Of a DNA stretch of 53,851 nucleotides, positions 19,943-53,851 are shown piece after piece. The notes beneath the pieces are model-generated. The model was not told the origin of the DNA, made no database searches, and saw only the letters and a list, made by a program, of their open reading frames with translations. A program made the position numbers and the translations under genes. The stretch lies in NCBI GenBank assembly GCA_017499595.2, contig CM038999.1:4278001-4331851 (forward strand). The letters are read 5' to 3'. Source of the stretch: Psilocybe cubensis (Eukaryota). How positions within the stretch are numbered: position 1 is the first letter of the stretch; every line of letters starts with the position of its first letter.

Positions 19943-20150
19943 CATGTTTAACCATACACCACAAAGCACATATTAGCGCTGGTTAGGGTTTATGGTTTAG
20001 GGTTGGTGGTGACCACAAAAATACATATTAGGATGGTTTAGGGTTTAGCATTAGGGTTGGTTGGGATTTGATATACCACAAAAGCACAAATTAGTCCGGT
20101 TAGGGTTGGTTAGGGTTGGTTAGGGTTGGTAATTACAATTAAATATTTAG
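19943..20150 (+). repeat. ~200-bp telomere-like dispersed module, copy 2
   Basis: Same module as 12019-12221. Confidence 0.85.
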
Positions 20151-23651: not shown

Positions 23652-23880
23652 AACACAATGTAACACCTACACCACAAAGCACATATTAGCCTTGGTTAGG
23701 GTTAGGGATTAGGGTTGGTAATGACCACAAAAATACAGATTAGGATGGTTTAGGGTTTAGGTTTTAGGGTTGGTTGGGATTTGATAATACCATAAAAGCA
23801 CGGATTAGGCTGGTTAGGGCTGGTTAGGGTTGGTAAATACAATTATATATGTAGCAGCTTAGGGTTGGTATGTATGTAGC
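23652..23880 (+). repeat. ~200-bp telomere-like dispersed module, copy 3
   Basis: Same module as 12019-12221, closest to copy 1. Confidence 0.85.
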
Positions 23881-25360: not shown

Positions 25361-28300
25361 GGGGAGCGAGCACCGAGCGAAGCGAGGTGCGAGCGACTAT
25401 TTAAACTGTGAGTTAAAATGAAAGAAGGCCAGAGGGCTGTTGGGGGATCCCAACAACCAGCCCTTTCGTCTTTATAGACTCTTCAGTGGCTATTCTTAGA
25501 AGGAATGTTCTAGACATCCGATGACAGCGCGTGAAGTGATGCTGCGCAGCTGTCATGTATCTTACCGACTATCACAAATCTGTCAATGTTTATTGTCAAG
25601 TTAGACAGGTCTCTGATGAACAGAGTGTCACGGGTCGATGTGGCACATGGTAACCTGTCAAAAGTGGATCCAACACTTTTGTTCTTTGACATTGTGGGTT
25701 ATTGACTGTGATGTGAATCACATGGATATAGATTACTCTGGTTACGTGGCTCCGAGTAACCGCGACATGGGAATATTCACATGTCTAGAGTATAAATAGC
25801 TTACCTGGGTCCTTACCTAACAATCAAACAATAGAATGATTGATTGTTGTGAATCTTAATTGGACAGTTCATGATCCGGTCCATCAAAAATGTTTCCACG
25901 GTACTAAGGAACTTTTCCCGAAGTACTAAGTAACTTTTCCCATGTACTAAATTAGATCCGGCCCTTCACAATCACATGCCGTTCGGAAGTTCACACGCCT
26001 ACCTTACTTCCTACTAAGGTTAGACTTAGTTAGCTTAGGGTTGGGGTTAGGTTAGGGTTTAGGGTTTAGGGTTTAGGGTTTAGGTTTAGCTATTTAATCC
26101 AATGTGTTGCTTGTAAGTAGATGTTTGTTACTTTATAGCAAGGAATACTTACGGTTAGGGTTTTTTTCTAATGCTTTACGCCTTACGCGCTAGTATTCTT
26201 TTCATCGGTTGTAAGATTTGGATATTCTGCCGAATTCTGGATGTTCCCTCTCTTGTGAGATTGAACGTCTATGAAGTATTATCTCGTTATCACTTTCGAT
26301 ACTTATCTGTTCAGCAGCTTCAACTAGAGCAGAATGATAAGTTTCATTAACGTTTTGAGTTTCGGGAACAACACCACCTTTTTCAGCGATGTTTTCATCC
26401 AGTTTACGAAAGACTGTTTTCTTCCACACATTTGCAAGGTCGAAAAGATTAGTATTGCGCTTTCGCGATACTATCCAACGACTTCCGAGTAGTCCTATCT
26501 TCCTCAAATCCGGTACGAACTCAGTTTCTCCGTCCACGAGGATCTGTGTGAACAGCTCCGGGCGAACATCATCGAGGTCGTGAACGTAATTTGGATCTGG
26601 TTTGATAAGGGGTCTGGACGAGTCTGCACTATACAGACCTTTCTCGGCATGTTCATACCATGCCGACCAGTACTCGGTAACAGTCTTTCCAAGTTCAGCA
26701 GCTGAAAACCAATTCCATACCTGATCAAATCTGGTTTTAAGTACAAGAATGGATTCGTCGTGCTCTGCGACTCGTAAAGCGAATCGCTTTTCCCAACGTT
26801 CTTGTATATTCTTCTTACACCAAGACATGACTAGGTTTTCGGGATAACCGCGCATCAAATAGAGAGCGTTAAGGTCTCTAATTGCTCCGATGTAGATTTC
26901 CTTGGTACTACATAGCACGGCTAACCTGGATAACTCTCCAATGTAGACGCCACGTTTGACGTCCAAAGGATGATGTGATACCCATGGAACTCGTTCTCGG
27001 TTGTTTCCTGTCTTGACAAATGGCTTCCAATGAAGTTTTCCAGACTCCTTGAATATGAAAGCATCGAGAAATTGACATCCCGACGAGGAAACAGCCCATT
27101 CGATAACACAACCATCGAACTTTATTGTTTCTTTAATAAGATTAAGTGCAAGTGCTTCGGACTCGGCGTAAACAATTGCGAAACAATCGTCGATGTACCT
27201 TCCATAGAAGGCCACGTTTGGGTGGTCTAAGATTTTTGACTTTATTTCAAAATGGGCTCCAAAGAGGTTAGCAAGGTCCGGAGAATCCGCGACACCCATT
27301 GCGAGGCCATTTTTTTGTCTAAAATATCTAGACCCATGTTGTGTTATCAATTGCGTATTGCCAATCTCGATAGCACGTTTAAAGATGCCCAATTTAACCA
27401 AGTTATTCTCTAACGAATTTGGATTAATATGGGCTAATGCAGTGTTTTCTTCCGAAGCGTTGAGTAACCATTCCTCGTACATATTACAAACGATTTCGAT
27501 GCACAAGTCCAACGGAATATTGGGATAGAAAGCAACTACATCCCCGGTGACAAAATACCATTGTCGTTTGGGGTCTATACGCAATTGGCTTAATCTCGTA
27601 AAGAGATCCTTCGTTCCGTGAATGATTGAAGGAGTCGATTTAATAATCGGCTTAAGCTCTTTTGATACAAACTTGGCTGCAGGATTAAATACTACAGAGT
27701 GACACGGAATTATGGGCCTAAATCCAGTAGGTTTTTTGTGGATTTTAGGTATACCATGAAATTGAGGATACTTGAACGATGATCCGTCTTCCGGTACATT
27801 CGATAGAAAGAATCGAGACAACCCAAGTTCAAATAGAAACAGATGTTCATCTTCGACGGTACGTGCAAGAGTTTGCATCTGGATCATTTTGCTCTTCATT
27901 ACTTCTTGCGCAACTTCGAATTCTAGCTCTTCGTAATTACGTTCATCTTCAAGAAGATTGAGCTCATTCCTTAATATCCAGTCGCGTTCAGACACCGCGA
28001 GGCCAAGATTCTTATCTGTCATCGTAATAACATAGTTGTTATCGATAAGAAACTTTTGGATCTTGTCCCTTTTAGGAGAGAACGCGTGCTTTCGCATCTC
28101 CTTGAGGGCTTCTTCCGGGATACTTGCGATCGTTTTAATAACGTACCGACGTCCCATTGAAAGGCCAAGTTCCATAAATTGCGGTAATACAGGAGGTTTT
28201 TCTTTTTTCTTAGAACTTACTCCATAATCTGGATCAAAAGGTTTATTCATGCCTTCTTTAAACAAAAAATAGATACGCCATCTTATTCTTCGTTGAAAAT

Positions 28301-34290: not shown

Positions 34291-35152
34291 TTAGGGTTAG
34301 GGGTTTAGGGGGGGAGCGAGCACCGAGCGAAGCGAGGTGCGAGCGACTAGTTTAAACTGGGAGTTAAAATGGAAAGAAGCCAGAGGGCTGTTGGGGGATC
34401 CCAACAACCAGCCCTTTCGTCTTTATAGACTCTTCAGTGGCTATTCTTAGAAGGAATGTTCTAGACATCCGATGACAGCGCGTGAAGTGATGCTGCGCAG
34501 CTGTCATGTATCTTACCGACTATCACAAATCTGTCAATGTTTATTGTCAAGTTAGACAGGTCTCTGATGAACAGAGTGCCACGGGTCGATGTGGCACATG
34601 GTAACCTGTCAAAAGTGGATCCAACACTTTTGTTCTTTGACATCGTGGGTTATTGACTGTGATGTGAATCACATGGATATAGATTACTCTGGTTACGTGG
34701 CTCCGAGTAACCGCGACATGGGAATATTCACATGTCTAGAGTATAAATAGCTTACCTGGGTCCTTACCTAACAATCAAACAATAGAATGATTGATTGTTG
34801 TGAATCTTAATTGGACAGTTCATGATCCGGTCCATCAAAAATGTTTCCACGGTACTAAGGAACTTTTCCCGAAGTACTAAGTAACTTTTCCCATGTACTA
34901 AATTAGATCCGGCCCTTCACAATCACATGCCGTTCGGAAGTTCACACGCCTACCTTACTTCCTACTAAGGTTAGACTTAGTTAGCTTAGGGTTGGGGTTA
35001 GGTTAGGGTTTAGGGTTTAGGGTTTAGGGTTTAGGTTTAGCTATTTAATCCAAAGTGTTGCTTGTAAGTAGATGTTTGTTACTTTATAGCAAGGGATACT
35101 TACGGTTAGGGTTTTTTTCTAATGCTTTACGCCTTACGCGCTAGTATTCTTT

Positions 35153-38686: not shown

Positions 38687-38798
38687 AGTGGCTGATGGGT
38701 GATAGCAAAGTCGTTGGGTTTAGGGGGGGAGCGAGCACCGAGCGAAGCGAGGTGCGAGCGACTAGTTTAAACTGGGAGTTAAAATGGAAAGAAGCCAG

Positions 38799-38948
38799 CG
38801 GCTCGTGATTTTTTACGGGCGTGGACCAGTGCAAGCAATGGGCGCTACCGTACAGGCAAACGATCACTACATACCGCTCATGACAAAAGAGCAGGCTATT
38901 GCCTATTAAGTCCTTTACCAAGGGACACTCTCATGCCATTGGACATGG
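38799..38948 (-). ncRNA. 3'-terminal 150 nt of the group I intron, at the hammerhead insertion site; truncated and telomere-capped
   Basis: Matches 50050-50199; junction GAAGCCAG|CGGCTCGTG. Confidence 0.9.
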
Positions 38949-38967
38949 TTTTAGGGTTTAGGGTTTA

Positions 38968-41900
38968 GGGGGGGAGCGAGCACCGAGCGAAGCGAGGTGC
39001 GAGCGACTTGTTTAAACTGTGAGTTAAATGGAAAGAAGGCCAGAGGGCTGTTGATTGTTATCAGCAGCCAGCCCTTTCGTCTTTATAGACTCTTCAGTGG
39101 CTATTCTTAGAAGGAATGTTCTGGAACATCCGATGACAGCGCGTGAAGTGATGCTGCGCAGCTGTCATGTATCTTACCGACTATCACAAATCTGTCAATG
39201 TTTATTGTCAAGTTAGACAGATCTCTGATGAACAGAGTGTCACGGGTCGATGTGGCACATGGTAACCTGTCAAAAGTGGATCCAACACTTTTGTTCTTTG
39301 ACATCGTGGGTTATTGACTGTGATGTGAATCACATGGATATAAAATACTCTGGTTACGTGGCTCCGAGTAACCGTGACATGGGAATATTCTCATGTCAAG
39401 AGTATAAATAGCTTACCTGGGTCCTTACCTAACAATCAATTGATTGATTGTTGTGAATCTTAATTGGACAGTTCATGATCCGGTCCATCAAAAATGTTTC
39501 CACGGTACTAAGGAACTTTTCCCGAGGTACTAAGTAACTTTTCCCATGTACTAAATTAGATCCGGCCCTTCACAATCACATGCCTTTCGGAAGTTCACAC
39601 GCCTACCTTACTTCCTACTAAGGTTAGACTTAGTTAGCTTAGGGTTGGGGTTAGGTTAGGGCTTAGGGTTTAGGGTTTAGGGTTTAGGTTTAGGTTTAGC
39701 TATTTAATCCAATGTGTTGCTTGTAAGTAGATGTTTGTTACTTTGTAGCAAGGAATACTTACGGTTAGGGTTTTTTTCTAATGCTTTACGCCTTACGCGC
39801 TAGTATTCTTTTCATCGGTTGTAAGATTTGGATATTCTGCCGAATTCTGGATGTTCCCTCTCTTGTGAGATTGAACGTCTATGAAGTATTATCTCGTTAT
39901 CACTTTCGATACTTATCTGTTCAGCAGCTTCAACTAAAGCAGAATGATAAGTTTCATTAACGTTTTGAGTTTCGGGAACAACACCACCTTTTTCAGCGAT
40001 GTCTTCATCCAGTTTACGAAAGACTGTTTTCTTCCACACATTTGTAAGGTCGAAAAGATTAGTATTGCGTTTTCGCGATACTATCCAACGACTTCCGAGT
40101 AGTCCTATCTTCCTCAAATCCGGTACGAACTCAGTTTCTCCGTCCACGAGGATCTGTGTGAACAGCTCCGGGCGAACATCATCGAGGTCGTGAACGTAAT
40201 TTGGATCTGGTTTGATAAGGGGTCTGGACGAGTCTGCACTATACAAACCTTTCTCGGCATGTTCATACCATGCCGACCAGTACTCGGTAACAGTTTTTCC
40301 AAGTTCAGCAGCTGAAAACCAATTCCATACCTGATCAAATCTGGTTTTAAGTACAAGAATGGATTCGTCGTGCTCTGCGACTCGTAAAGCGAATCGCTTT
40401 TCCCAACGTTCTTGTATATTCTTCTTACACCAAGACATGACTAGGTTTTCGGGATAACCGCGCATCAAATAGAGAGCGTTAAGGTCTCTAATTGCTCCGA
40501 TGTAGATTTCCTTGGTACTACATAGCACGGCTAACCTGGATAACTCTCCAATGTAGACGCCACGTTTGACGTCCAAAGGATGATGTGATACCCATGGAAC
40601 TCGTTCTCGGTTGTTTCCTGTCTTGACAAATGGCTTCCAATGAAGTTTTCCAGACTCCTTGAATATGAAAGCATCGAGAAATTGACATCCCGACGAGGAA
40701 ACAGCCCATTCGATAACACAACCATCGAACTTTATTGTTTCTTTAATAAGATTAAGTGCAAGTGCTTCGGACTCGGCGTAAACAATTGCGAAACAATCGT
40801 CGATGTACCTTCCATAGAAGGCCACGTTTGGGTGGTCTAAGATTTTTGACTTTATTTCAAAATGGGCTCCAAAGAGGTTAGCAAGGTCCGGAGAATCCGC
40901 GACGCCCATTGCGAGGCCATTTTTTTGTCTAAAATATCTAGACCCATGTTGTGTTATCAATTGCGTATTGCCAATCTCGATAGCACGTTTAAAGATGCCC
41001 AATTTAACCAAGTTATTCTCTAACGAATTTGGATTAATATGGGCTAATGCAGTGTTTTCTTCCGAAGCGTTGAGTAACCATTCCTCGTACATATTACAAA
41101 CGATTTCGATGCACAAGTCCAACGGAATATTGGGATAGAAAGCAACTACATCCCCGGTGACAAAATACCATTGTCGTTTGGGGTCTATACGCAATTGGCT
41201 TAATCTCGTAAAGAGATCCTTCGTTCCGTGAATGATTGAAGGAGTCGATTTAATAATCGGCTTAAGCTCTTTTGATACAAACTTGGCTGCAGGATTAAAT
41301 ACTACAGAGTGACACGGAATTATGGGTCTAAATCCAGTAGGTTTTTTGTGGATTTTAGGTATACCATGAAATTGAGGATACTTGAACGATGATCCGTCTT
41401 CCGGTACATTCGATAGAAAGAATCGAGACAACCCAAGTTCAAATAGAAACAGATGTTCATCTTCGACGGTACGTGCAAGAGTTTGCATCTGGATCATTTT
41501 GCTCTTCATTACTTCTTGCGCAACTTCGAATTCTAACTCTTCATAGTTACGTTCATCTTCAAGAAGATTGAGCTCATTCCTTAATATCCAGTCGCGTTCA
41601 GACACCGCGAGGCCAAGATTCTTATCTGTCATCGTAATAACATAGTTGTTATCGATAAGAAACTTACGGATCTTGTCCCTTTTAGGAGAGAACGCGTGCT
41701 TTCGCATCTCCGTAAGGGCTTCTTCCGGGATACTTGCGATCGTGCGTTGCACGTACCGACGTCCCATCGAAAGGCCAAGTTCCATGTATTGCGGTAATAC
41801 TGGAGGTTTCTCTTTCTTTTTTGAGCTTACTCCGTAATCTGGATCAAAAGGTTTGTTCATGCCTTCCTTAAACAAAAAATAGATACGCCATCTTATTCTT

Positions 41901-44071
41901 CGTTGAAAATCATTCCATGCTTGCATGATCAGACTTTGAGAAGGCAGAGTAAAAAACATATAATTGAGTCCGAGTGACAAATCATTTGCTATATCTACAG
42001 GGACCACCACACCAGGACTACAGTGTACACTACTACGATACTGGCCAGCCAACAAGAATGAGATCGGCGTATGTAAGTGTACAAAAGAAACTGCGTCTGT
42101 TTTAGTCATGGTGAGTATATCGTCAGGAATAGAGTTGGGGAAGGCGGGTCTTACCGACGTAAAAGGTACTACATTAGACCGCGCGTCTAGGCTCTTGCCT
42201 TTCCCTTTCCCTTTGGATCGTTCTTGACGGGAGCTCTCCCCTTCCCTTTCTTCTTGTTGTCGACCTTGTTGGAAGCCTTGGTTTGGGGCTTCTTCTGCGA
42301 AGGCGTCGACGAGGGTTTGAATTTCGAAGGGCCAGCTTTCTTGGCCTGAGGTTGAGGAGCCTTGGACGAATTCTGGCCAGACAAAGTCTGGGTAATTAGA
42401 ATAGTAATTAGTATCCAGAATTATGGGTGAAGGGTTACGAGAACTTGCCTTCTTGCCCACAGATCCAAGGTTGAGCTTCTTGAGACGTGCATTCAAGCCC
42501 TTATCAATAAGGGATTGAATCGATGGACCTGGTTTGGTCGCATCGGCCATCTCGACATCGGCTGTTGCCGCAGTCGACCGCTTTTTCTCAATCTTGATTG
42601 CCAAAGCGCGGTGGCGCAAGTTGACAATCTGTTTGATATGAGAGAAGATGGCTGGCAAAATGGTTTGCAATGCGCTGCATTCAGCCTTCTTCTGCGGTGA
42701 CACTACCCAATCTGTTATTCGACGAACTCCCTTGTTGTCTGTAGAGAAAACGGGGAGCTTATAGCTGGATTTGCGATCATCGTAAGTTGTCTTAACGATG
42801 AGGGCAGCAGCTTCATAACAGTTATTGAGTGCGCATTTATCATCCCAAAAGGCCAGTTCGTCCTTTTTCGCCTGAATGGCGCCGTCGTTGATTGCCTTTT
42901 GGAAGACATCACGAGCGGTGGAGAACGTAGAGGAAACTCGAAGAGCTTCCGCTGACCCGGCATCCGCGAATTCCTTCGTAAGTTGGAACTCGGGAGCCTT
43001 CACCCGAAGGCGATTGGGGGTGTTGCCTGCGCTAACGGCAAGTTCAAGGCGCTCGAGGCTAGCCTTGACTGTTTCCCTCTTATCGCACCACGATGCGAGG
43101 TTGAGGAGAAACTCCCTAAGGGCAGCACGATAGTCAAAAAAGACGCAGTCTACAATCTGGTCAATGGAGCGGCACTCAGCTATTTTCTTGATGACGACAG
43201 TGGCCAACTCGTCGATGAGGGCGTTGTGGCGGCCAGCTTCGTCGTTGACGCCAAAAACTGTGTTGTTGACGACAGCCTGGGTGAGTGCGTCCAGGGTGGG
43301 GGACATGGCACGAGAGAAGGCAGCAGAGTAAGTGGAAGACATAGTAGCTGTTGGGTAATAGCAAAGTCGTTGGGTTTAGGGGGGGAGCGAGCACCGAGCG
43401 AAGCGAGGTGCGAGCGACTTGTTTAAACTGTGAGTTAAATGGAAAGAAGGCCAGAGGGCTGTTGATTGTTATCAGCAGCCAGCCCTTTCGTCTTTATAGA
43501 CTCTTCAGTGGCTATTCTTAGAAGGAATGTTCTGGAACATCCGATGACAGCGCGTGAAGTGATGCTGCGCAGCTGTCATGTATCTTACCGACTATCACAA
43601 ATCTGTCAATGTTTATTGTCAAGTTAGACAGATCTCTGATGAACAGAGTGTCACGGGTCGATGTGGCACATGGTAACCTGTCAAAAGTGGATCCAACACT
43701 TTTGTTCTTTGACATCGTGGGTTATTGACTGTGATGTGAATCACATGGATATAAAATACTCTGGTTACGTGGCTCCGAGTAACCGTGACATGGGAATATT
43801 CTCATGTCAAGAGTATAAATAGCTTACCTGGGTCCTTACCTAACAATCAATTGATTGATTGTTGTGAATCTTAATTGGACAGTTCATGATCCGGTCCATC
43901 AAAAATGTTTCCACGGTACTAAGGAACTTTTCCCGAGGTACTAAGTAACTTTTCCCATGTACTAAATTAGATCCGGCCCTTCACAATCACATGCCGTTCG
44001 GAAGTTCACACGCCTACCTTACTTCCTACTAAGGTTAGACTTAGTTAGCTTAGGGTTGGGGTTAGGTTAGG
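38968..44071 (-). mobile_element. PLE unit 8, full-length with a second upstream pLTR (43372-44071); hammerheads at 39039-39101 and 43450-43512
   Basis: Both pLTRs share private variants (GACTTGTTT, TTGATTGTTATC, GATCTCTG, TAAAATACTC, CCGTGAC, TCTCATGTCAAG). Confidence 0.95.
39812..43342 (-). CDS. Full-length EN-less PLE reverse transcriptase (1176 aa); GC-AG intron at 42388-42448
   Basis: Same motifs as 35153-38686. Confidence 0.95.
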   Translation of the reverse strand: MSSTYSAAFSRAMSPTLDALTQAVVNNTVFGVNDEAGRHNALIDELATVVIKKIAECRSIDQIVDCVFFDYRAALREFLLNLASWCDKRETVKASLERLELAVSAGNTPNRLRVKAPEFQLTKEFADAGSAEALRVSSTFSTARDVFQKAINDGAIQAKKDELAFWDDKCALNNCYEAAALIVKTTYDDRKSSYKLPVFSTDNKGVRRITDWVVSPQKKAECSALQTILPAIFSHIKQIVNLRHRALAIKIEKKRSTAATADVEMADATKPGPSIQSLIDKGLNARLKKLNLGSVGKKASSRNPSPIILDTNYYSNYPDFVWPEFVQGSSTSGQESWPFEIQTLVDAFAEEAPNQGFQQGRQQEEREGESSRQERSKGKGKGKSLDARSNVVPFTSVRPAFPNSIPDDILTMTKTDAVSFVHLHTPISFLLAGQYRSSVHCSPGVVVPVDIANDLSLGLNYMFFTLPSQSLIMQAWNDFQRRIRWRIYFLFKEGMNKPFDPDYGVSSKKKEKPPVLPQYMELGLSMGRRYVQRTIASIPEEALTEMRKHAFSPKRDKIRKFLIDNNYVITMTDKNLGLAVSERDWILRNELNLLEDERNYEELEFEVAQEVMKSKMIQMQTLARTVEDEHLFLFELGLSRFFLSNVPEDGSSFKYPQFHGIPKIHKKPTGFRPIIPCHSVVFNPAAKFVSKELKPIIKSTPSIIHGTKDLFTRLSQLRIDPKRQWYFVTGDVVAFYPNIPLDLCIEIVCNMYEEWLLNASEENTALAHINPNSLENNLVKLGIFKRAIEIGNTQLITQHGSRYFRQKNGLAMGVADSPDLANLFGAHFEIKSKILDHPNVAFYGRYIDDCFAIVYAESEALALNLIKETIKFDGCVIEWAVSSSGCQFLDAFIFKESGKLHWKPFVKTGNNRERVPWVSHHPLDVKRGVYIGELSRLAVLCSTKEIYIGAIRDLNALYLMRGYPENLVMSWCKKNIQERWEKRFALRVAEHDESILVLKTRFDQVWNWFSAAELGKTVTEYWSAWYEHAEKGLYSADSSRPLIKPDPNYVHDLDDVRPELFTQILVDGETEFVPDLRKIGLLGSRWIVSRKRNTNLFDLTNVWKKTVFRKLDEDIAEKGGVVPETQNVNETYHSALVEAAEQISIESDNEIILHRRSISQEREHPEFGRISKSYNR

Positions 44072-44097
44072 GTTTAGGGTTTAGGGTTTAGGGTTTA

Positions 44098-45365
44098 GGG
44101 GGGGAGCGAGCACCGAGCGAAGCGAGGTGCGAGCGACTAGTTTAAACTGTGAGTTTGAAATAGAAAGAAGGCCAGAGGGCTGTTGGGGGATCCCAACAAC
44201 CAGCCCTTTCGTCTTTATAGACTCTTCAGTGGCTATTCTTAGAAGGAATGTTCTAGACATCCGATGACAGCGCGTGAAGTGATGCTGCGCAGCTGTCATG
44301 TATCTTACCGACTATCACAAATCTGTCAATGTTTATTGTCAAGTTAGACAGGTCTCTGATGAACAGAGTGTCACGGGTCGATGTGGCACATGGTAACCTG
44401 TCAAAAGTGGATCCAACACTTTTGTTCTTTGACATCGTGGGTTATTGACTGTGATGTGAATCACATGGATATAGATTACTCTGGTTACGTGGCTCCGAGT
44501 AACCGCGACATGGGAATATTCACATGTCTAGAGTATAAATAGCTTACCTGGGTCCTTACCTAACAATCAAACAATAGAATGATTGATTGTTGTGAATCTT
44601 AATTGGACAGTTCATGATCCGGTCCATCAAAAATGTTTCCACGGTACTAAGGAACTTTTCCCGAAGTACTAAGTAACTTTTCCCATGTACTAAATTAGAT
44701 CCGGCCCTTCACAATCACATGCCGTTCGGAAGTTCACACGCCTACCTTACTTCCTACTAAGGTTAGACTTAGTTAGCTTAGGGTTGGGGTTAGGTTAGGG
44801 TTTAGGGTTTAGGGTTTAGGGTTTAGGTTTAGCTATTTAATCCAAAGTGTTGCTTGTAAGTAGATGTTTGTTACTTTATAGCAAGGAATACTTACGGTTA
44901 GGGTTTTTTTCTAATGCTTTACGCCTTACGCGCTAGTATTCTTTTCATCGGTTGTAAGATTTGGATATTCTGCCGAATTCTGGATGTTCCCTCTCTTGTG
45001 AGATTGAACGTCTATGAAGTATTATCTCGTTATCACTTTCGATACTTATCTGTTCAGCAGCTTCAACTAGAGCAGAATGATAAGTTTCATTAACGTTTTG
45101 AGTTTCGGGAACAACACCACCTTTTTCAGCAATGTTTTCATCCAGTTTACGAAAGACTGTTTTCTTCCACACATTTGCAAGGTCGAAAAGATTAGTATTG
45201 CGCTTTCGCGATACTATCCAACGACTTCCGAGTAGTCCTATCTTCCTCAAATCCGGTACGAACTCAGTTTCTCCGTCCACGAGGATCTGTGTGAACAGCT
45301 CCGGGCGAACATCATCGAGGTCGTGAACGTAATTTGGATCTGGTTTGATAAGGGGTCTGGACGAG
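44098..45365 (-). mobile_element. PLE unit 9, 5'-truncated (ORF tail 44945-45365); hammerhead at 44171-44233
   Basis: pLTR plus ORF tail; only GGGTTA separates it from the next unit. Confidence 0.92.
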
Positions 45366-45370
45366 GGTTA

Positions 45371-45507
45371 GGGGGGGAGCGAGCACCGAGCGAAGCGAGG
45401 TGCGAGCGACTAGTTTAAACTGTGAGTTTGAAATAGAAAGAAGGCCAGAGGGCTGTTGGGGGATCCCAACAACCAGCCCTTTCGTCTTTATAGACTCTTC
45501 AGTGGCT
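45371..45507 (-). mobile_element. PLE unit 10, 137-bp stub: terminus plus hammerhead only (45444-45506)
   Basis: Ends at TTCAGTGGCT, followed by TTTAGGG repeats. Confidence 0.9.
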
Positions 45508-46401
45508 TAGGGTTTAGGGTTTTAGGGTTTAGGGTTTAGGGTTTAGGGTTTAGGGGGGGAGCGAGCACCGAGCGAAGCGAGGTGCGAGCGACTAGTTTAA
45601 ACTGTGAGTTTGAAATAGAAAGAAGGCCAGAGGGCTGTTGGGGGATCCCAACAACCAGCCCTTTCGTCTTTATAGACTCTTCAGTGGCTATTCTTAGAAG
45701 GAATGTTCTAGACATCCGATGACAGCGCGTGAAGTGATGCTGCGCAGCTGTCATGTATCTTACCGACTATCACAAATCTGTCAATGTTTATTGTCAAGTT
45801 AGACAGGTCTCTGATGAACAGAGTGTCACGGGTCGATGTGGCACATGGTAACCTGTCAAAAGTGGATCCAACACTTTTGTTCTTTGACATCGTGGGTTAT
45901 TGACTGTGATGTGAATCACATGGATATAGATTACTCTGGTTACGTGGCTCCGAGTAACCGCGACATGGGAATATTCACATGTCTAGAGTATAAATAGCTT
46001 ACCTGGGTCCTTACCTAACAATCAAACAATAGAATGATTGATTGTTGTGAATCTTAATTGGACAGTTCATGATCCGGTCCATCAAAAATGTTTCCACGGT
46101 ACTAAGGAACTTTTCCCGAAGTACTAAGTAACTTTTCCCATGTACTAAATTAGATCCGGCCCTTCACAATCACATGCCGTTCGGAAGTTCACACGCCTAC
46201 CTTACTTCCTACTAAGGTTAGACTTAGTTAGCTTAGGGTTGGGGTTAGGTTAGGGTTTAGGGTTTAGGGTTTAGGGTTTAGGTTTAGCTATTTAATCCAA
46301 AGTGTTGCTTGTAAGTAGATGTTTGTTACTTTATAGCAAGGAATACTTACGGTTAGGGTTTTTTTTCCCAATGCTTTACGCCTTACGCGCTAGTATTCTT
46401 T

Positions 46402-49400
46402 TCATCGGTTGTAAGATTTGGATATTCTGCCGAATTCTGGATGTTCCCTCTCTTGTGAGATTGAACGTCTATGAAGTATTATCTCGTTATCACTTTCGAT
46501 ACTTATCTGTTCAGCAGCTTCAACTAGAGCAGAATGATAAGTTTCATTAACGTTTTGAGTTTCGGGAACAACACCACCTTTTTCAGCGATGTTTTCATCC
46601 AGTTTACGAAAGACTGTTTTCTTCCACACATTTGCAAGGTCGAAAAGATTAGTATTGCGCTTTCGCGATACTATCCAACGACTTCCGAGTAGTCCTATCT
46701 TCCTCAAATCCGGTACGAACTCAGTTTCTCCGTCCACGAGGATCTGTGTGAACAGCTCCGGGCGAACATCATCGAGGTCGTGAACGTAATTTGGATCTGG
46801 TTTGATAAGGGGTCTGGACGAGTCTGCACTATACAGACCTTTCTCGGCATGTTCATACCATGCCGACCAGTACTCGGTAACAGTCTTTCCAAGTTCAGCA
46901 GCTGAAAACCAATTCCATACCTGATCAAATCTGGTTTTAAGTACAAGAATGGATTCGTCGTGCTCTGCGACTCGTAAAGCGAATCGCTTTTCCCAACGTT
47001 CTTGTATATTCTTCTTACACCAAGACATGACTAGGTTTTCGGGATAACCGCGCATCAAATAGAGAGCGTTAAGGTCTCTAATTGCTCCGATGTAGATTTC
47101 CTTGGTACTACATAGCACGGCTAACCTGGATAACTCTCCAATGTAGACGCCACGTTTGACGTCCAAAGGATGATGTGATACCCATGGAACTCGTTCTCGG
47201 TTGTTTCCTGTCTTGACAAATGGCTTCCAATGAAGTTTTCCAGACTCCTTGAATATGAAAGCATCGAGAAATTGACATCCCGACGAGGAAACAGCCCATT
47301 CGATAACACAACCATCGAACTTTATTGTTTCTTTAATAAGATTAAGTGCAAGTGCTTCGGACTCGGCGTAAACAATTGCGAAACAATCGTCGATGTACCT
47401 TCCATAGAAGGCCACGTTTGGGTGGTCTAAGATTTTTGACTTTATTTCAAAATGGGCTCCAAAGAGGTTAGCAAGGTCCGGAGAATCCGCGACGCCCATT
47501 GCGAGGCCATTTTTTTGTCTAAAATATCTAGACCCATGTTGTGTTATCAATTGCGTATTGCCAATCTCGATAGCACGTTTAAAGATGCCCAATTTAACCA
47601 AGTTATTCTCTAACGAATTTGGATTAATATGGGCTAATGCAGTGTTCTCTTCCGAAGCGTTGAGTAACCATTCCTCGTACATATTACAAACGATTTCGAT
47701 GCACAAGTCCAACGGAATATTGGGATAGAAAGCAACTACATCCCCGGTGACAAAATACCATTGTCGTTTGGGGTCTATACGCAATTGGCTTAATCTCGTA
47801 AAGAGATCCTTCGTTCCGTGAATGATTGAAGGAGTCGATTTAATAATCGGCTTAAGCTCTTTTGATACAAACTTGGCTGCAGGATTAAATACTACAGAGT
47901 GACACGGAATTATGGGCCTAAATCCAGTAGGTTTCTTGTGGATTTTAGGTATACCATGAAATTGAGGATACTTGAACGATGATCCGTCTTCCGGTACATT
48001 CGATAGAAAGAATCGAGACAACCCAAGTTCAAATAGAAACAGATGTTCATCTTCGACGGTACGTGCGAGAGTTTGCATCTGAATCATTTTGCTCTTCATA
48101 ACTTCTTGCGCAACTTCGAATTCTAACTCTTCGTAGTTGCGTTCATCTTCAAGAAGATTGAGCTCATTCCTTAATATCCAGTCGCGTTCAGACACCGCGA
48201 GGCCAAGATTCTTATCTGTCATCGTAATAACATAGTTGTTATCGAAAAGAAACTTTTGGATCTTGTCTCTTTTAGGAGAGAACGCGTGCTTTCGCATCTC
48301 TTTAAGGGCTTCTTCCGGGATACTTGCGATCGTTTTAATAACGTACCGACGTCCCATTGAAAGGCCAAGTTCCATAAATTGCGGTAACATTGGAGGTTTC
48401 TCTTTCTTTTTAGAGCTTACTCCATAGTCTGGATCGAAAGGTTTATTCATGCCTTCTTTAAACAAAAAATAGATACGCCATCTTATTCTTCGTTGAAAAT
48501 CATTCCATGCTTGCATGATCAGATTTTTAGAAGGCAGTGTAAAAAACATATAATTGAGTCCAAGAGATAAATCATTTGCTACATCAACAGGGACCGAAAC
48601 ACCAGGACTACAGTGTACACTAGATCTATACTGGCCAGCCAATAAGAATGAAATCGGGGTATTGAGGTGTACAAAAGAAACTGCGTCTGTTTTAGTCATG
48701 GTGAGTATATCGTCAGGAATAGAGTTGGGGAAGGCGGGTCTCACCGACGTAAATGATGCTACAGTAGACCGCGCGTCTAGGCTCTTGCCTTTCCCTTTCC
48801 CTTTGGATCGTTGTTCTTGACGGGAGCTCTCCCCTTCCCTTTCTTCTTGTTGTCGACCTTGTTGGAAGCCTTGGTTTGAGGCTTCCTCTGCGAAGGCGTC
48901 GACGACGACTTGGGTTTCGAAGGGCCAGCTTTCCTGGCCTGAGGTTGAGGAGCCTTGGACGAATTCTGGCCAGACAAAGTCTGGGTAATTAGAGTAATAA
49001 TTAGTGTCCAGAATTATGGGTGAAGGGTTACGAAAACTTGCCTTCTTGCCCACAGATCCAAGGTTGAGCTTTTTGAGACGTGCATTCAAGCCCTTATCAA
49101 TAAGGGATTGAATCGATGGACCTGGTTTGGTCGCATCGGCCATCTCGACATCGGCTGTTGCCGCAGTCGTCCGCTTTTTCTCAATCTTAATTGCCAAGGC
49201 GCGGTGGCGCATGTTGACAATCTGTTTGATATGAGAAAAGATCGCCGGCAGTATAGTTTGCAGCGCACTGCATTCGGCTTTCTTTTGCGGAGACACTACC
49301 CACTCTGCTATACGTCGAACTCCCTTGTTGTCTGTAGAGAAAACAGGGAGCTTGTAGCTGGATTTGCGATCATCGTAAGTTGCCTTAACGATGAGGGCAG

Positions 49401-49935
49401 CAGCTTCGTAGCAAGAGTTGAGCGCGCATTTATCATCCCAAAAAGCCAGCTCGTCCTTTTTCGCCTGAACGGCGCCGTCGTTAATTGCCTTTTGGAAGGC
49501 ATCACGAGCGGAAGAGAACGTAGTGGAGACTCGAAGAGCCTCCGCTGACCCGGCATCCGCGAATTCCTTCGTAAGTTGGAACTCGGGTGCCTTCACCTTA
49601 AGGCGATTGGGCGTGTTGCCTGCGCTAACGGCAGATTCAAGGCGCTCGAGGCTAGCCTTGACTGTTTCCCTCTTGTCGCACCACGATGCGAGGTTGAGGA
49701 GAAACTCCCTGAGGGCAGCACGATAGTCAAAAAAGACGCAGTCTATGACTTGGTCAACGGAGCGGCACTCAGCTATTTTTTTGATGACCACAGTGGCCAG
49801 CTCGTCGATAAGAGCGTTATGGCGGCCTGCTTCATCGTTGACGCCGAAGACAGTGTTGTTGACGACGGCCTGGGTGAGTGCGTCCAGGGTAGGGGACATG
49901 GCACGAGAGAATGCAGCAGAGTATTGGGATGACAT
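46402..49935 (-). CDS. Full-length EN-less PLE reverse transcriptase (1177 aa); GC-AG intron at 48981-49041, in-frame GT-AG intron at 46524-46577
   Basis: Same motifs as 35153-38686. Confidence 0.95.
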   Translation of the reverse strand: MSSQYSAAFSRAMSPTLDALTQAVVNNTVFGVNDEAGRHNALIDELATVVIKKIAECRSVDQVIDCVFFDYRAALREFLLNLASWCDKRETVKASLERLESAVSAGNTPNRLKVKAPEFQLTKEFADAGSAEALRVSTTFSSARDAFQKAINDGAVQAKKDELAFWDDKCALNSCYEAAALIVKATYDDRKSSYKLPVFSTDNKGVRRIAEWVVSPQKKAECSALQTILPAIFSHIKQIVNMRHRALAIKIEKKRTTAATADVEMADATKPGPSIQSLIDKGLNARLKKLNLGSVGKKASFRNPSPIILDTNYYSNYPDFVWPEFVQGSSTSGQESWPFETQVVVDAFAEEASNQGFQQGRQQEEREGESSRQEQRSKGKGKGKSLDARSTVASFTSVRPAFPNSIPDDILTMTKTDAVSFVHLNTPISFLLAGQYRSSVHCSPGVSVPVDVANDLSLGLNYMFFTLPSKNLIMQAWNDFQRRIRWRIYFLFKEGMNKPFDPDYGVSSKKKEKPPMLPQFMELGLSMGRRYVIKTIASIPEEALKEMRKHAFSPKRDKIQKFLFDNNYVITMTDKNLGLAVSERDWILRNELNLLEDERNYEELEFEVAQEVMKSKMIQMQTLARTVEDEHLFLFELGLSRFFLSNVPEDGSSFKYPQFHGIPKIHKKPTGFRPIIPCHSVVFNPAAKFVSKELKPIIKSTPSIIHGTKDLFTRLSQLRIDPKRQWYFVTGDVVAFYPNIPLDLCIEIVCNMYEEWLLNASEENTALAHINPNSLENNLVKLGIFKRAIEIGNTQLITQHGSRYFRQKNGLAMGVADSPDLANLFGAHFEIKSKILDHPNVAFYGRYIDDCFAIVYAESEALALNLIKETIKFDGCVIEWAVSSSGCQFLDAFIFKESGKLHWKPFVKTGNNRERVPWVSHHPLDVKRGVYIGELSRLAVLCSTKEIYIGAIRDLNALYLMRGYPENLVMSWCKKNIQERWEKRFALRVAEHDESILVLKTRFDQVWNWFSAAELGKTVTEYWSAWYEHAEKGLYSADSSRPLIKPDPNYVHDLDDVRPELFTQILVDGETEFVPDLRKIGLLGSRWIVSRKRNTNLFDLANVWKKTVFRKLDENIAEKGGVVPETQNVNETYHSALVEAAEQISIESDNEIILHRRSISQEREHPEFGRISKSYNR
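48777..49935 (-). CDS. Predicted spliced ORF1 isoform (exons 49935-49042 and 48980-48777; 365 aa ending ...KKKGKGRAPVKNNDPKGKGKARA*)
   Basis: 894-nt exon 1 plus 204-nt exon 2, in frame after removal of the 61-nt GC-AG intron. Confidence 0.6.
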
Positions 49936-50044
49936 GGTAACTGATGGGTGATAGCAAAGTCGTTGGGTTTAGGGGGGGAGCGAGCACCGAGCGAAGCGAG
50001 GTGCGAGCGACTAGTTTAAACTGTGAGTTTGAAATAGAAAGAAG

Positions 50045-51036
50045 GCCAGCGGCTCGTGATTTTTTACGGGCGTGGACCAGTGCAAGCAATGGGCGCTACC
50101 GTACAGGCAAACGATCACTACATACCGCTCATGACAAAAGAGCAGGCTATTGCCTATTAAGTCCTTTACCAAGGGACACTCTCATGCCATTGGACATGGC
50201 AGGCTAATACCCTTTAAGCCCTTTACCAAGGGGCGCCACATCAGCCATTACAGCCACAGGTTCATTTCCGGCGACGAACTATTTGTCCATCCTTGTGTTA
50301 ACTCCCTTTACTAAGGGGAGGCCGGGTCACCCGCGTTTTAAGCGGTTCTGGACTTCGGGCCGTCCTCGTAAGCAGCGAGGCGCGGTTTAGATACCAGATG
50401 TGGGTTTCCCCACTCCCAAGACTATATCTTAAGATCCGAAGACCCCACTACCACCTAGTCGTTGAACGCTTCCGTCGGCGTGACCGTTACGGATTCGCTG
50501 CTGATTATCCATTCCAGCTTTCGCTGAATCTTGGGGATTGTTACCATACCCGGTCGCCACCGGTGCCTAGGCTGTTTCCAGCGGTCGGCGGTACCCACAA
50601 GCTTTAGGACGTCCCAGCAATTCGGTAGTGTCGCCGGCTGCAACCGACTTGCCAGGAGCGTATCCAGCAGAGCTGGTCCTGACAACCCCCAGTGTACTCT
50701 CACCTGATGTCCATACCCATTGAAGAACTGCGCGCCCTCGAATTACAAAGTCATCATAGCTGGATATCCCCGCAGCTAGACTAAAACGAGTTTGTATGAC
50801 CTCCGTAACCCAACATAGAAGGCGTGAGCGAGTGAAAGAAAAAGGGCCCCGCTTGCCGTGAGGCAGCCAACATGTCGATGAAACGTCCCCGAGTCAAGGG
50901 CAAGATCAGTGACGAAAGGGCTCCCGGATGAGTTGGGAAGGCACAAGCGGCAGGAGTTTGGGAGAGGACGAGTACTTGAGGGCTGTTGGGGGATCCCAAC
51001 AACCAGCCCTTTCGTCTTTATAGACTCTTCAGTGGC
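50045..51036 (-). ncRNA. Hammerhead ribozyme split by the group I intron (halves 51036-50979 and 50049-50045)
   Basis: Removing 50050-50978 restores exactly GCCAG|AGGGCTG as in intact copies. Confidence 0.88.
50050..50978 (-). ncRNA. Group I intron (IC1-like), 929 nt, no homing endonuclease, inserted in the hammerhead core
   Basis: 5' exon ends in U and intron ends in G; IGS GGGGUUGU 50682-50689; P AAUUGCUGGGA 50612-50622; Q AAUCAGCAGC 50497-50506; R GUUCAACGACUAG 50455-50467; S AAGAUAUAGUC 50420-50430; P3 CACUACC/GGUAGUG; P8 UUCG and P9 GAAA loops. Confidence 0.93.
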
Positions 51037-51702
51037 TATTCTTAGAAGGAATGTTCTAGACATCCGATGACAGCGCGTGAAGTGATGCTGCGCAGCTGTC
51101 ATGTATCTTACCGACTATCACAAATCTGTCAATGTTTATTGTCAAGTTAGACAGGTCTCTGATGAACAGAGTGTCACGGGTCGATGTGGCACATGGTAAC
51201 CTGTCAAAAGTGGATCCAACACTTTTGTTCTTTGACATCGTGGGTTATTGACTGTGATGTGAATCACATGGATATAGATTACTCTGGTTACGTGGCTCCG
51301 AGTAACCGCGACATGGGAATATTCACATGTCTAGAGTATAAATAGCTTACCTGGGTCCTTACCTAACAATCAAACAATAGAATGATTGATTGTTGTGAAT
51401 CTTAATTGGACAGTTCATGATCCGGTCCATCAAAAATGTTTCCACGGTACTAAGGAACTTTTCCCGAAGTACTAAGTAACTTTTCCCATGTACTAAATTA
51501 GATCCGGCCCTTCACAATCACATGCCGTTCGGAAGTTCACACGCCTACCTTACTTCCTACTAAGGTTAGACTTAGTTAGCTTAGGGTTGGGGTTAGGTTA
51601 GGGTTTAGGGTTTAGGGTTTAGGGTTTAGGTTTAGCTATTTAATCCAAAGTGTTGCTTGTAAGTAGATGTTTGTTACTTTATAGCAAGGAATACTTACGG
51701 TT

Positions 51703-52631
51703 CGGCTCGTGATTTTTTACGGGCGTGGACCAGTGCAAGCAATGGGCGCTACCGTACAGGCAAACGATCACTACATACCGCTCATGACAAAAGAGCAGGC
51801 TATTGCCTATTAAGTCCTTTACCAAGGGACACTCTCATGCCATTGGACATGGCAGGCTAATACCCTTTAAGCCCTTTACCAAGGGGCGCCACATCAGCCA
51901 TTACAGCCACAGGTTCATTTCCGGCGACGAACTATTTGTCCATCCTTGTGTTAACTCCCTTTACTAAGGGGAGGCCGGGTCACCCGCGTTTTAAGCGGTT
52001 CTGGACTTCGGGCCGTCCTCGTAAGCAGCGAGGCGCGGTTTAGATACCAGATGTGGGTTTCCCCACTCCCAAGACTATATCTTAAGATCCGAAGACCCCA
52101 CTACCACCTAGTCGTTGAACGCTTCCGTCGGCGTGACCGTTACGGATTCGCTGCTGATTATCCATTCCAGCTTTCGCTGAATCTTGGGGATTGTTACCAT
52201 ACCCGGTCGCCACCGGTGCCTAGGCTGTTTCCAGCGGTCGGCGGTACCCACAAGCTTTAGGACGTCCCAGCAATTCGGTAGTGTCGCCGGCTGCAACCGA
52301 CTTGCCAGGAGCGTATCCAGCAGAGCTGGTCCTGACAACCCCCAGTGTACTCTCACCTGATGTCCATACCCATTGAAGAACTGCGCGCCCTCGAATTACA
52401 AAGTCATCATAGCTGGATATCCCCGCAGCTAGACTAAAACGAGTTTGTATGACCTCCGTAACCCAACATAGAAGGCGTGAGCGAGTGAAAGAAAAAGGGC
52501 CCCGCTTGCCGTGAGGCAGCCAACATGTCGATGAAACGTCCCCGAGTCAAGGGCAAGATCAGTGACGAAAGGGCTCCCGGATGAGTTGGGAAGGCACAAG
52601 CGGCAGGAGTTTGGGAGAGGACGAGTACTTG
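51703..52631 (-). ncRNA. Second full copy of the 929-nt group I intron, inserted at AAAACCCU|AACCG in the 3' UTR
   Basis: Appears identical to 50050-50978 (offset 1653); removal restores TTACGGTT|AGGGTTTTTT with no target duplication. Confidence 0.93.
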
Positions 52632-52865
52632 AGGGTTTTTTTTCCAATGCTTTACGCCTTACGCGCTAGTATTCTTTTCATCGGTTGTAAGATTTGGATA
52701 TTCTGCCGAATTCTGGATGTTCCCTCTCTTGTGAGATTGAACGTCTATGAAGTATTATCTCGTTATCACTTTCGATACTTATCTGTTCAGCAGCTTCAAC
52801 TTTTTCAGCGATGTTTAGGGTTTAGGGTTTAGGGTTTAGGGTTTAGGGTTTAGGGTTTAGGTTTA

Positions 52866-53654
52866 GGGGGGGAGCGAGCACCGAGCGAAGCGAGGTGCGA
52901 GCGACTAGTTTAAACTGGGAGTTAAATGGAAAGTAGCCAGAGGGCTGTTGGGGGATCCCAACAACCAGCCCTTTCGTCTTTATAGACTCTTCAGTGGCTA
53001 TTCTTAGAAGGAATGTTCTAGACATCCGATGACAGCGCGTGAAGTGATGCTGCGCAGCTGTCATGTATCTTACCGACTATCACAAATCTGTCAATGTTTA
53101 TTGTCAAGTTAGACAGGTCTCTGATGAACAGAGTGTCACGGGTCGATGTGGCACATGGTAACCTGTCAAAAGTGGATCCAACACTTTTGTTCTTTGACAT
53201 CGTGGGTTATTGACTGTGATGTGAATCACATGGATATAGATTACTCTGGTTACGTGGCTCCGAGTAACCGCGACATGGGAATATTCACATGTCTAGAGTA
53301 TAAATAGCTTACCTGGGTCCTTACCTAACAATCAAACAATAGAATGATTGATTGTTGTGAATCTTAATTGGACAGTTCATGATCCGGTCCATCAAAAATG
53401 TTTCCACGGTACTAAGGAACTTTTCCCGAAGTACTAAGTAACTTTTCCCATGTACTAAATTAGATCCGGCCCTTCACAATCACATGCCGTTCGGAAGTTC
53501 ACACGCCTACCTTACTTCCTACTAAGGTTAGACTTAGTTAGCTTAGGGTTGGGGTTAGGTTAGGGTTTAGGGTTTAGGGTTTAGGGTTTAGGTTTAGCTA
53601 TTTAATCCAAAGTGTTGCTTGTAAGTAGATGTTTGTTACTTTATAGCAAGGAAT
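52866..53654 (-). mobile_element. PLE unit 12, pLTR-only, most distal; hammerhead at 52936-52998
   Basis: pLTR truncated at GCAAGGAAT and capped by the terminal telomere. Confidence 0.93.
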
Positions 53655-53851
53655 TTTAGGGTTTAGGGTTTAGGGTTTTAGGGTTTAGGGTTTAGGGTTT
53701 AGGGTTTAGGGTTTAGGGTTTAGGGTTTAGGGTTTAGGGTTTAGGGTTTAGGGTTTAGGGTTTAGGGTTTAGGGTTTAGGGTTTAGGGTTTAGGGTTTAG
53801 GGTTTAGGGTTTAGGGTTTAGGGTTTAGGGTTTAGGGTTTAGGGTTTAGGG
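53655..53851 (+). repeat. Terminal telomeric tract (TTTAGGG)n, G-strand on +, chromosome end
   Basis: About 28 near-perfect TTTAGGG units run to the end of the window, with a few TTTTAGGG/TTTAGGGG variants. Confidence 0.97.

Follow-up and report, generated by a model that had tools for sequence, protein, structure and literature searches.

The window analysed here is a stretch of 53,851 nucleotides (nt) of Psilocybe cubensis DNA (assembly GCA_017499595.2, contig CM038999.1, positions 4,278,001 to 4,331,851), which runs out into a (TTTAGGG)28 array, the chromosome end. Upstream of this end lie head-to-tail units of a single retroelement, with the minus (C-rich) strand as its sense strand. Within these units we find copies of a 929-nt insert that is a structurally complete group I intron without an open reading frame (ORF), confirming an observation made in a first-pass annotation of this DNA. 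The intron occupies two different sites of the same element, one of them in the core of a hammerhead ribozyme motif, and occurs in terminal repeats whose twins lack it.

Three of the units are full-length and carry intact ORFs, located at 35153-38686 (element 1, 1177 amino acids (aa)), 39812-43342 (element 2, 1176 aa) and 46402-49935 (element 3, 1177 aa). The other units are 5'-truncated at various points and are separated by short runs of telomeric repeats, the sequence of a unit ending in ...CTCCCCCCCTAAACCC before the telomeric repeats begin. Proteins of Psilocybe cubensis share 98-99% identity with the encoded protein, and many proteins on short contigs about 60%. Its reverse transcriptase (RT) segment (residues 640-900), when excised, matched the Pfam family RVT_1 at 30.1 bits against a cut-off of 29.6, a family otherwise matched only by two truncated ORFs. 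Whole-ORF Pfam scans of the 1177-aa protein, the second full-length copy and three relatives returned no family at all, and three ORF segments scanned down to an expectation value (E) of 1 contained no endonuclease, GIY-YIG included, or other family. A PDB sequence search with the element protein gave no relatives at E up to 1, and the nearest Atlas clusters, a lead only, comprise Basidiomycota and Rotifera sequences with PF26215 and PF28514. The element has, in short, a single RT ORF without a GIY-YIG endonuclease, forms telomeric arrays with reverse-complement telomeric repeats at its 3' ends, and is oriented as priming on telomeric G-overhangs would require. The RVT_1 match, the want of an endonuclease family and the position of the array at the (TTTAGGG)28 end bear out the telomeric retroelement host of the first-pass annotation. 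By these features the host appears to be a telomere-attached, endonuclease-free Penelope-like element (PLE) of the Athena/Coprina type, a group characterized in the relevant part of PMC8557442 as endonuclease-deficient, with such an orientation and with 3' reverse-complement telomeric repeats. The chromosome-end repeat itself is the 7-base TTTAGGG (28 copies) and not TTAGGG, and is also seen in internal runs, such as 52813-52868 and 45507-45555; the telomere repeat of a related agaric, Agrocybe chaxingu, is given as TTAGGG in a section of PMC11433599.

The 929-nt insert gave a full-length match to the Rfam group I intron covariance model RF00028 (model positions 1-253 of 253) at 50398-50694 on the minus strand, with 70.9 bits against a gathering threshold of 50 (E 4.7e-16, or 1.6e-17 when the short stretch with the core of this copy was scanned alone), and a second, identical match lies at 52051-52347(-), in another copy of the insert. 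This is the covariance search that the first-pass annotation had proposed, and all the hallmarks it had listed, namely P, Q, R, S, P3, P4, P7, a P5abc-like extension, a U before the 5' splice site and a terminal G, were recovered on the minus strand, with the P, Q, R and S elements falling in conserved aligned positions of the RF00028 alignment. The core helices, which we read by hand from the sequence and the cmscan alignment, include: 1) P3, of 7 base pairs (bp), CACUACC/GGUAGUG. 2) P4, of 6 bp, UGCUGG/UCAGCA. 3) P7, GACUA/UAGUC, with the guanosine-binding G-C pair. 4) P8, of 5 bp with a UUCG loop, and P9, with a GAAA loop. 5) P6 with an extension, P2 and P2.1, and a multi-helix P5 extension with two GAAA loops. 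The features of subgroup IC1 (the P5abc-type extension, P2 and P2.1) are visible by hand and suggest an architecture of the nuclear ribosomal DNA (rDNA) type, IC1-like. Its freedom from ORFs, likewise claimed before, holds: the longest stop-to-stop frame touching the intron is of 112 aa, and none of the 10 intron frames has a Pfam match below E 0.1, so that no endonuclease gene or remnant was detected among them. An Rfam scan of the intron found no other ribozyme at E up to 1, bar one match to a small RNA at the level of chance.

Self-BLAST of the window set the ends of the insert at 50050 and 50978, which places a U at -1 before the 5' splice site and makes G the last intron base, the junctions reading CCCU/C...GCCG/C (slashes mark junctions here and below). 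The internal guide GGGGUUGU (50689-50682) pairs at 8 of 8 positions with the exon sequence ACAGCCCU (50986-50979), with U.G at the splice site. The helix thus formed, P1, continues into the intron by two pairs and a 6-bp extension (CA and GUACUC against GAGUAC and UG), enclosing about 270 nt. This guide pairing and the P1 extension, both anticipated in the first-pass annotation, emerged as a long-range P1 in an unconstrained fold of 941 nt that included 12 nt of the 5' exon (-345.8 kcal/mol against -329.8 kcal/mol for shuffled sequences; z -2.8, with none of 20 shuffles as good). Beyond P9, the tail that runs to the terminal G includes two segments of 34 nt that match each other at 85% (50142-50232, and likewise in the other copies), each bearing a CCCUUGGUAAAGG hairpin, and a third, similar hairpin lies at about 50325.

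Site 1, in the terminal repeat of the element, is represented by 15 copies in the window, 13 of which are empty and read ...CAGCCCT/CTGGC.... The other two are occupied by copy A, which is full-length, and by copy C at 38799, which retains the 3' junction only. The first-pass annotation had noted a junction at 38798/38799, and this junction is real, but it belongs to a copy of which only the last 150 nt remain, and so represents a 3' junction alone. Directly before copy C stand CCCTAAACCCTAAACCCTAAAA and the 3' end of the next unit, the appearance expected of a complementary DNA (cDNA) that ended within the intron before being capped. Site 2, in the 3' untranslated region (UTR), is empty in 9 of its 10 copies, which read ...AAAAAAACCCT/AACCGTAAGT..., and the tenth holds copy B, a full copy that went unmentioned in the first-pass annotation, as did the fact that copies A and B share one upstream repeat (52812 to 49965) of element 3. 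The two are identical at 929 of 929 positions and have the same intron ends. The 5' flank of copy B over 52632-52801 agrees with the element's own 46355-46525 in 170 of 171 aligned columns, with 52802-52812 unaligned, and represents the start of a 5'-truncated unit preceded by the telomeric repeats at 52813-52868; downstream of the copy, AACCGTAAGT... resumes with the next base of the element. The intron insertions involved neither duplication nor deletion of target sequence, and copy B has entered the element cleanly, at a site other than site 1. We also considered copy B as the cDNA of a free intron that had switched template to a polyadenylated mRNA, and rejected this, as its 5' flank is the element's own and the A-run is part of the empty site.

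Sites 1 and 2 share only CCCT, and both pair with the intron guide. Among the 1139 U-ending 8-mers of the 4419-nt element RNA, the duplex of site 1 with the guide ranks first (-11.0 kcal/mol, 8 of 8 pairs) and that of site 2 twenty-third (-7.8 kcal/mol, 7 of 8 pairs), and merely 19 of the 1139 end in CCCU. Telomere-like units (ACCCTAA in the sense orientation) also recur inside each terminal repeat: a run of about 5.6 of them lies some 620 nt upstream of the hammerhead (46252-46273 and equivalents, e.g. 51598-51635 and 26052-26089), and the UAAACCCU units of this run pair with the guide as well as site 2 does, none of them bearing an intron here.

The terminal repeats of the full-length elements permit a direct comparison of occupied and empty sites. 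In all three elements the upstream and downstream repeats agree completely over the 3' exon segment (85/85, 83/83 and 83/83), the longer part of the repeat shows identities of 724/724 and 643/645, and all three share the junction from repeat to 5' UTR (CCCTAAACCC-AACGAC). In elements 1 and 3 the intron is present in the upstream repeat and absent from the identical downstream repeat, while element 2 has it in neither. The hosts themselves have diverged: relative to element 3, the ORF is 96.1% identical in element 1 and 95.7% in element 2, and elements 1 and 3 agree in 80 of 85 aligned columns of the 3' exon segment. Despite this divergence, the introns of elements 1 and 3 are identical over their common 150 nt (150/150). 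Because the repeats are identical save for the exact intron, and the intron is undiverged, its gain or loss, exact to the splice sites, must be very recent and have happened in two lineages. Whether this was gain by reverse splicing or loss by splicing before reverse transcription, the event kept to the splice sites base by base; the twin repeats are the main, if indirect, argument that the ribozyme was probably active recently. Over 34290-52812 of the window the intron occurs only in upstream repeats, those of two of the three full-length elements, and in none of the 12 other site-1 copies. A simple reading is that truncated daughters lose the upstream repeat, and we do not count this pattern as evidence of function.

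Table 1. Features of the intron, its retroelement host and the chromosome end (positions in the window).
Feature	Position	Strand	Basis
Terminal (TTTAGGG)28 array, chromosome end	53655..53851	+	sequence
Copy B 5' flank: end of element ORF and start of 3' UTR, ending AAAAAAAACCCT	52632..52812	-	element alignment
Intron copy B, site 2, 3' UTR, 48 nt past stop codon position	51703..52631	-	RF00028; 929/929 identical to A
Upstream terminal repeat between introns A and B	50979..51702	-	alignment; 724/724 identical to intron-less downstream repeat 45631-46354
Hammerhead 5' part: helix I 5' strand AGCCA, CUGAAGAG, helix II, GAAA, helix III, U16.1	50979..51037	-	sequence, RAGATH-1 alignment
Intron copy A, 929 nt, site 1, upstream terminal repeat of full-length element 3	50050..50978	-	RF00028; exact insert relative to 13 empty copies
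P1-loop insertion of about 270 nt, no ORF, no family match	50700..50969	-	frame, fold and Pfam scans
Internal guide GGGGUUGU (50689-50682) and 3' strand of P1 extension (50699-50690)	50682..50699	-	sequence; paired in minimum-free-energy fold; site 1 duplex rank 1/1139
Copy A catalytic core, P2-P9	50398..50694	-	Rfam match, model 1-253
Tail of about 350 nt between P9 and terminal G	50050..50397	-	fold against shuffles; internal-repeat comparison
Hammerhead 3' part: C17 and helix I 3' strand UGGCC, first 3'-exon bases	50044..50049	-	sequence, RAGATH-1 alignment
Intact 1177-aa ORF of full-length element 3, RT, no endonuclease domain found	46402..49935	-	ORF list, Pfam
Element 3 downstream terminal repeat, both intron sites empty	45546..46354	-	alignment
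Telomeric repeats (CCCTAAA-type) directly abutting copy C	38949..38970	-	sequence
Intron copy C, last 150 nt only, upstream repeat of full-length element 1	38799..38948	-	150/150 identical to A, same 3' junction G/CTGGC
Example of uninterrupted hammerhead motif, site 1 empty	25427..25511	-	RAGATH-1 hammerhead 25.3 bits, E 0.094, below gathering

Site 1 lies within a hammerhead motif. Uninterrupted copies read AGCCA-CUGAAGAG-GUC(UAUAAA)GAC-GAAA-GGGCUG...CAGCCC-U-C-UGGCC, and the 13 of them thereby contain the complete core of a type I hammerhead: CUGAAGAG, the GUC/GAC helix II, GAAA, the GGGCUG/CAGCCC helix III, UC, and UGGCC/AGCCA as helix I. PLEs carry a hammerhead in their terminal repeat, and a type I hammerhead with a short helix II and a large helix III is the form described for fungal PLEs in the portion of PMC4209133 concerned, where the legend of Fig. 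3 records that a related hammerhead, from Serpula lacrymans, cleaved in vitro. On an intron-less copy the covariance scores were below gathering for both Rfam models (25.3 against 56.3 bits, E 0.094, for the RAGATH-1 hammerhead; 19.5 against 48.5 bits for Hammerhead_3), with the core correctly aligned. In the RAGATH-1 alignment the intron junction falls between the U and the C of ...GCCCUC/UGGCC (here the slash marks the hammerhead's scissile bond), so that the intron separates U16.1 from C17, one bond off the scissile bond, as the first-pass annotation had placed it and as the empty copies attest. Since the base after either junction is C, placing the insert precisely at the cleavage bond describes the sequence just as well. 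The last 8 nt of the 5' part of the hammerhead are at the same time the P1 partner of the intron, and with its core split at site 1 the hammerhead would be able to form only after splicing. In the three haplotypes that were folded, the distal part of helix III differs in sequence while its pairing is kept, and in none of the three is the active hammerhead the minimum-free-energy (MFE) fold, the 5' strand of helix I pairing instead with the start of helix III. A 145-bp unit at 45365-45507 starts exactly at the 5' edge of the hammerhead (GCCACTGAAGAG), right after telomeric repeats.

Independent read sets contain the intron as well. Two studies, under organism labels A and B, account for seven runs in which 0.95-0.99 of its sampled words were recovered (two of these runs may be the source), and two others, under labels B, C and D, for three runs with 0.52-0.61; the segment 49985-51590 was compared with four read sets. 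In X17, raw DNA reads from another study (label B), the intron is evenly covered at about 105 (the sum of both orientations) against about 1400 for the flanking repeat, a ratio of roughly 1:13; 194 reads skip exactly 929 nt, and the empty site appears, joined to other 3'-exon haplotypes, in several hundred further reads. Nine intron positions vary at about 30-70% in this set, pointing to at least two intron haplotypes there. Nine of its reads, with 7 different starts, join 50977 back to 50049, i.e. the last base of the intron to its first; this head-to-tail junction is absent from the window and was seen only in X17, and it could represent a tandem pair produced by reverse splicing into an occupied site, or the copy of a full-length circle. 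A 574-nt contig of X10 (label D) bridges the 3' junction (50007-50567, with 8 differences and 1 gap), and contigs of X9 (label C) cover 50099-50303, 50323-50473 and 50485-50895 at 99-100% identity. Of the variants in the core, that at 50434 changes a G.U pair of P8 to G-C, while those at 50418, 50455 and 50613 lie in joining segments, and two of these three change towards the Rfam consensus. If the genome is of about 46-50 Mb, as we take it to be, the depth in X17 corresponds, as a rough estimate, to three intron copies, which would be far fewer than expected of an intron resident in rDNA. For a related agaric, the part of PMC11433599 concerned gives a genome of 50.6 Mb.

We consider it probable that an intron of the rDNA type spreads in this element through reverse splicing into its RNA, the RT of the element then fixing the product in DNA. 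The element RNA would be transcribed with the intron inside, and the intron, active in vivo, would excise itself; the free intron, guided only by the 8-nt GGGGUUGU, would then reverse-splice into element RNA after ...CCCU, either at site 1, the 3' strand of hammerhead helix III, or at site 2 in the 3' UTR. Both the excision and the insertion step are suggested by the boundaries, the site sequences and the twin repeats. The element RT, primed on telomeric G-overhangs, would copy the intron-bearing RNA into chromosome-end DNA, and the retroelement would in this way supply the steps of reverse transcription and integration that group I introns lack. Copy C, which breaks off within the intron next to telomeric repeats, and the structure of the units support the copying step, which the first-pass annotation had already proposed. 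For another PLE, experiments in vitro described in one part of PMC11167929 found multi-copy, unprocessed RNA to serve as template and hammerhead mutants to insert normally, and PLEs retain spliceosomal introns according to a passage of PMC4209133.

Several observations weigh against this explanation. The guide is rich in G and U, and with wobble pairs 9 of the 1139 sites reach 8/8 and 63 reach 7/8, which makes pair counts by themselves weak. Other sites equal site 2 in energy, among them four telomere-like UAAACCCU sites that hold no intron here. All three copies of the window lie within one telomeric array, and the site-1 copy could have spread by DNA recombination between arrays. No P10 pairing was apparent by eye, the 3' tail of the intron folds no better than shuffled sequences (z -0.70), and the densities of single-nucleotide variants in core and periphery show no clear difference, the numbers being too small to speak of constraint. 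Nor did metagenome scans yield a close relative: an exact 22-mer of P7-P3' had no match in metagenome contigs, and the general R...S pattern was present at at least 120 loci, with likeness to this intron limited, among the matches listed, to 33-56 nt of core. An origin in rDNA is accordingly unproven and rests on architecture and composition (a G+C content of 54% in the intron against 44.8% in the element), which point to an intron of the rDNA type. At the level of RNA, intron words are absent from runs labelled 'RNA?', a label that is itself a guess; X19, with the same guessed label, amounts to one contig of the intron-less form and says nothing either way, since empty copies with 100% identical flanks exist and a spliced transcript would be indistinguishable from the transcript of an empty copy. 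Lastly, P1 forms in the predicted fold with 12 nt of 5' exon, but with 72 nt the MFE fold locks ACAGCC in the helix III hairpin and P1 is absent. At site 1 the two ribozymes may thus interfere with each other, in that helix III can sequester the 5' exon from P1. An alternative 5'-exon hairpin slows the splicing of the Tetrahymena pre-rRNA, and the competition between helix III and P1 resembles that hairpin; such competition would also explain how unspliced RNA came to be available as template.

Spread by reverse splicing and reverse transcription may be elaborated into a scheme that we offer tentatively and think rather unlikely as a whole, in which a retro-mobile intron couples three RNA activities: 1) Excision as a linear molecule or a full-length circle. 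2) Reverse splicing into any retroelement RNA, or telomeric C-strand RNA, that ends in ...CCCU. 3) The writing of the intron into chromosome ends by a telomerase-related RT. Splicing would, at the main site, decide whether the hammerhead forms, and the head-to-tail junction would be the DNA copy of a circle or of a double reverse splicing.

A different emphasis was that of the first-pass annotation, which saw a working switch, a single adaptive system in which regulated splicing assembles the hammerhead, whose cleavage then selects the RNAs that serve as template. The split one bond from the scissile phosphate, leaving the hammerhead unable to fold before splicing, fits such control, as do the competition of helix III and P1 for the same 8 nt, the confinement of the intron to upstream repeats and its retention under four organism labels. 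However, most element copies lack the intron (13 of 15 site-1 copies here, and the 1:13 depth ratio in X17), implying that the element is independent of it, and full-length element 2 is otherwise the same with its upstream hammerhead intact. The upstream confinement follows just as simply if 5'-truncated daughters lose that repeat, site 2 is unrelated to the hammerhead, and the hammerhead itself scores below the Rfam thresholds and is not predicted to adopt its active fold as the MFE fold in any of the three haplotypes. Hammerhead cleavage, moreover, was dispensable for the insertion of another PLE in vitro, and the parts of PMC11167929 and PMC7761336 that deal with its role call that role a mystery. 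We therefore regard control of the hammerhead by the intron as improbable, though it is the strongest of the competing explanations.

Less probable still, to our minds, is an inactive relic, which would have entered once, lost splicing and since been multiplied passively by reverse transcription of unspliced RNA and recombination among telomeric arrays. It would account for the lack of splicing evidence from the RNA-labelled runs, the predicted sequestration of the 5' exon and the long unstructured peripheral inserts, and intron-bearing RNA has clearly been templated unspliced. Yet an intron that no longer splices has no means of arriving, with its ends exact, at a second site whose CCCU is complementary to the guide, nor does a relic account for twin repeats that are identical over 809 nt and differ only by the exact intron; all conserved core elements are present in a full-length model match, the variant at 50434 turns a G.U of P8 into G-C, and the head-to-tail junction needs an event at the RNA level or a very precise one. 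DNA-level mobility, through a homing endonuclease acting in trans or ectopic recombination, or else an assembly chimera, is scarcely credible, for although DNA-level homing is on record for nuclear group I introns that carry homing endonuclease genes (PMC3679873, in the part treating mobility) and repeat arrays are hard to assemble, the intron has no endonuclease gene or remnant, its sites share only 4 bp where nuclear homing endonucleases need 15-20 bp (same source and part), raw reads of another study cover it evenly, and a contig under another organism label bridges its junction.

Some features of the window lie apart from the intron. A block of 19 kb (6400-25300) without element sequence separates two element arrays, and none of its ten ORFs of 116-200 aa (6.4-25.3 kb) matched a Pfam family. 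At 6516-6687 it has perfect tandem repeats, of 32 and 41 bp, that contain GGCCGGCC palindromes, and a short (GGTTAGGGTT)3 run lies internally at 20098-20130. Proximal to the block, at 1454-5675, lies a fourth, nearly full-length element (ORF of 1064 aa, 5'-truncated at the equivalent of 49745), showing that the element array is not confined to the extreme end of the chromosome.

The group I intron and the PLE are each of a known kind, and it is their association that appears unprecedented, although a prior report is possible. In the accounts of PMC3679873 and PMC9223047, as far as these bear on distribution, all known nuclear group I introns interrupt rRNA genes. The literature searched, which takes in few subscription journals, describes no retroelement that harbours a group I intron and no such intron in a nucleus outside rDNA, and the draft-genome paper of P. 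cubensis makes no mention of telomeres, introns or retrotransposons. Here, an Rfam scan found no rRNA family in the window, and the flanks are retroelement sequence at both sites.

In its structure the intron resembles the IC1 introns of nuclear rDNA, which are common in fungi, through its P3-P9 core, the R and S elements, P7 (GACUA/UAGUC), the P5 extension with GAAA loops, the GAAA loop of L9, P2 and P2.1, the U.G at the 5' splice site and the terminal G. The Tetrahymena intron Tth.L1925 is of this type. The present intron differs from this group in the retroelement sequence on both flanks, in its depth of about 1/13 of the surrounding repeat, and in the roughly 270 nt in its P1 loop and its 350-nt 3' tail. 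The host, for its part, is like the Athena/Coprina elements in its single endonuclease-free RT ORF, its head-to-tail arrays at a chromosome end with the sense on the C-rich strand, its terminal-repeat hammerhead of type I, in which helix III is large, and its variable 5' truncation (as these are described in parts of PMC8557442 and PMC4209133). It is unlike them in having a group I intron, none having been reported there in the literature searched. To the telomerase-related PLEs, whose hammerheads are still without a known role, the intron adds a passenger, and it is a rare example of a self-cleaving ribozyme with a self-splicing one inside it.

The closest conceptual parallel is the reverse-splicing model of intron mobility (Woodson, Cech, Roman; Birgisdottir and Johansen), with which our intron shares a short guide pairing ending in U, exact ends and freedom from endonucleases. 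By the account in the mobility part of PMC3679873, that route has never been followed through reverse transcription and genomic integration, and full-length intron circles may integrate too. What sets the present case apart is that the host RNA is itself a template of retrotransposition, so that the later steps would come free. A locus outside rDNA thus displays, in ordinary genome sequence, the products that the route predicts, i.e. an intron at two guide-matched sites, twins differing by the exact intron and what looks like a cDNA stopped inside the intron at a telomere, and an old hypothesis becomes directly testable in a culturable fungus.

Other systems offer partial likenesses. The twin-ribozyme introns of Didymium (Dir.S956-1) and Naegleria, as presented in a section of PMC3679873, similarly nest two ribozymes in one transcript, but there the small ribozyme sits inside the intron and serves the mRNA of an endonuclease, whereas here the intron sits inside the self-cleaving ribozyme of another element. 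The spliceosomal introns of PLEs (described in part of PMC4209133) furnish a precedent for the reverse transcription of intron-containing PLE RNA, and, unlike this intron, they are neither self-splicing nor mobile on their own. Mobile group II introns are comparable in their retrohoming, in which a ribozyme that reverse-splices is then copied by a reverse transcriptase; these introns, however, encode their own RT and splice into DNA, whereas the ORF-less group I intron described here presumably enters RNA and borrows the RT of its host.

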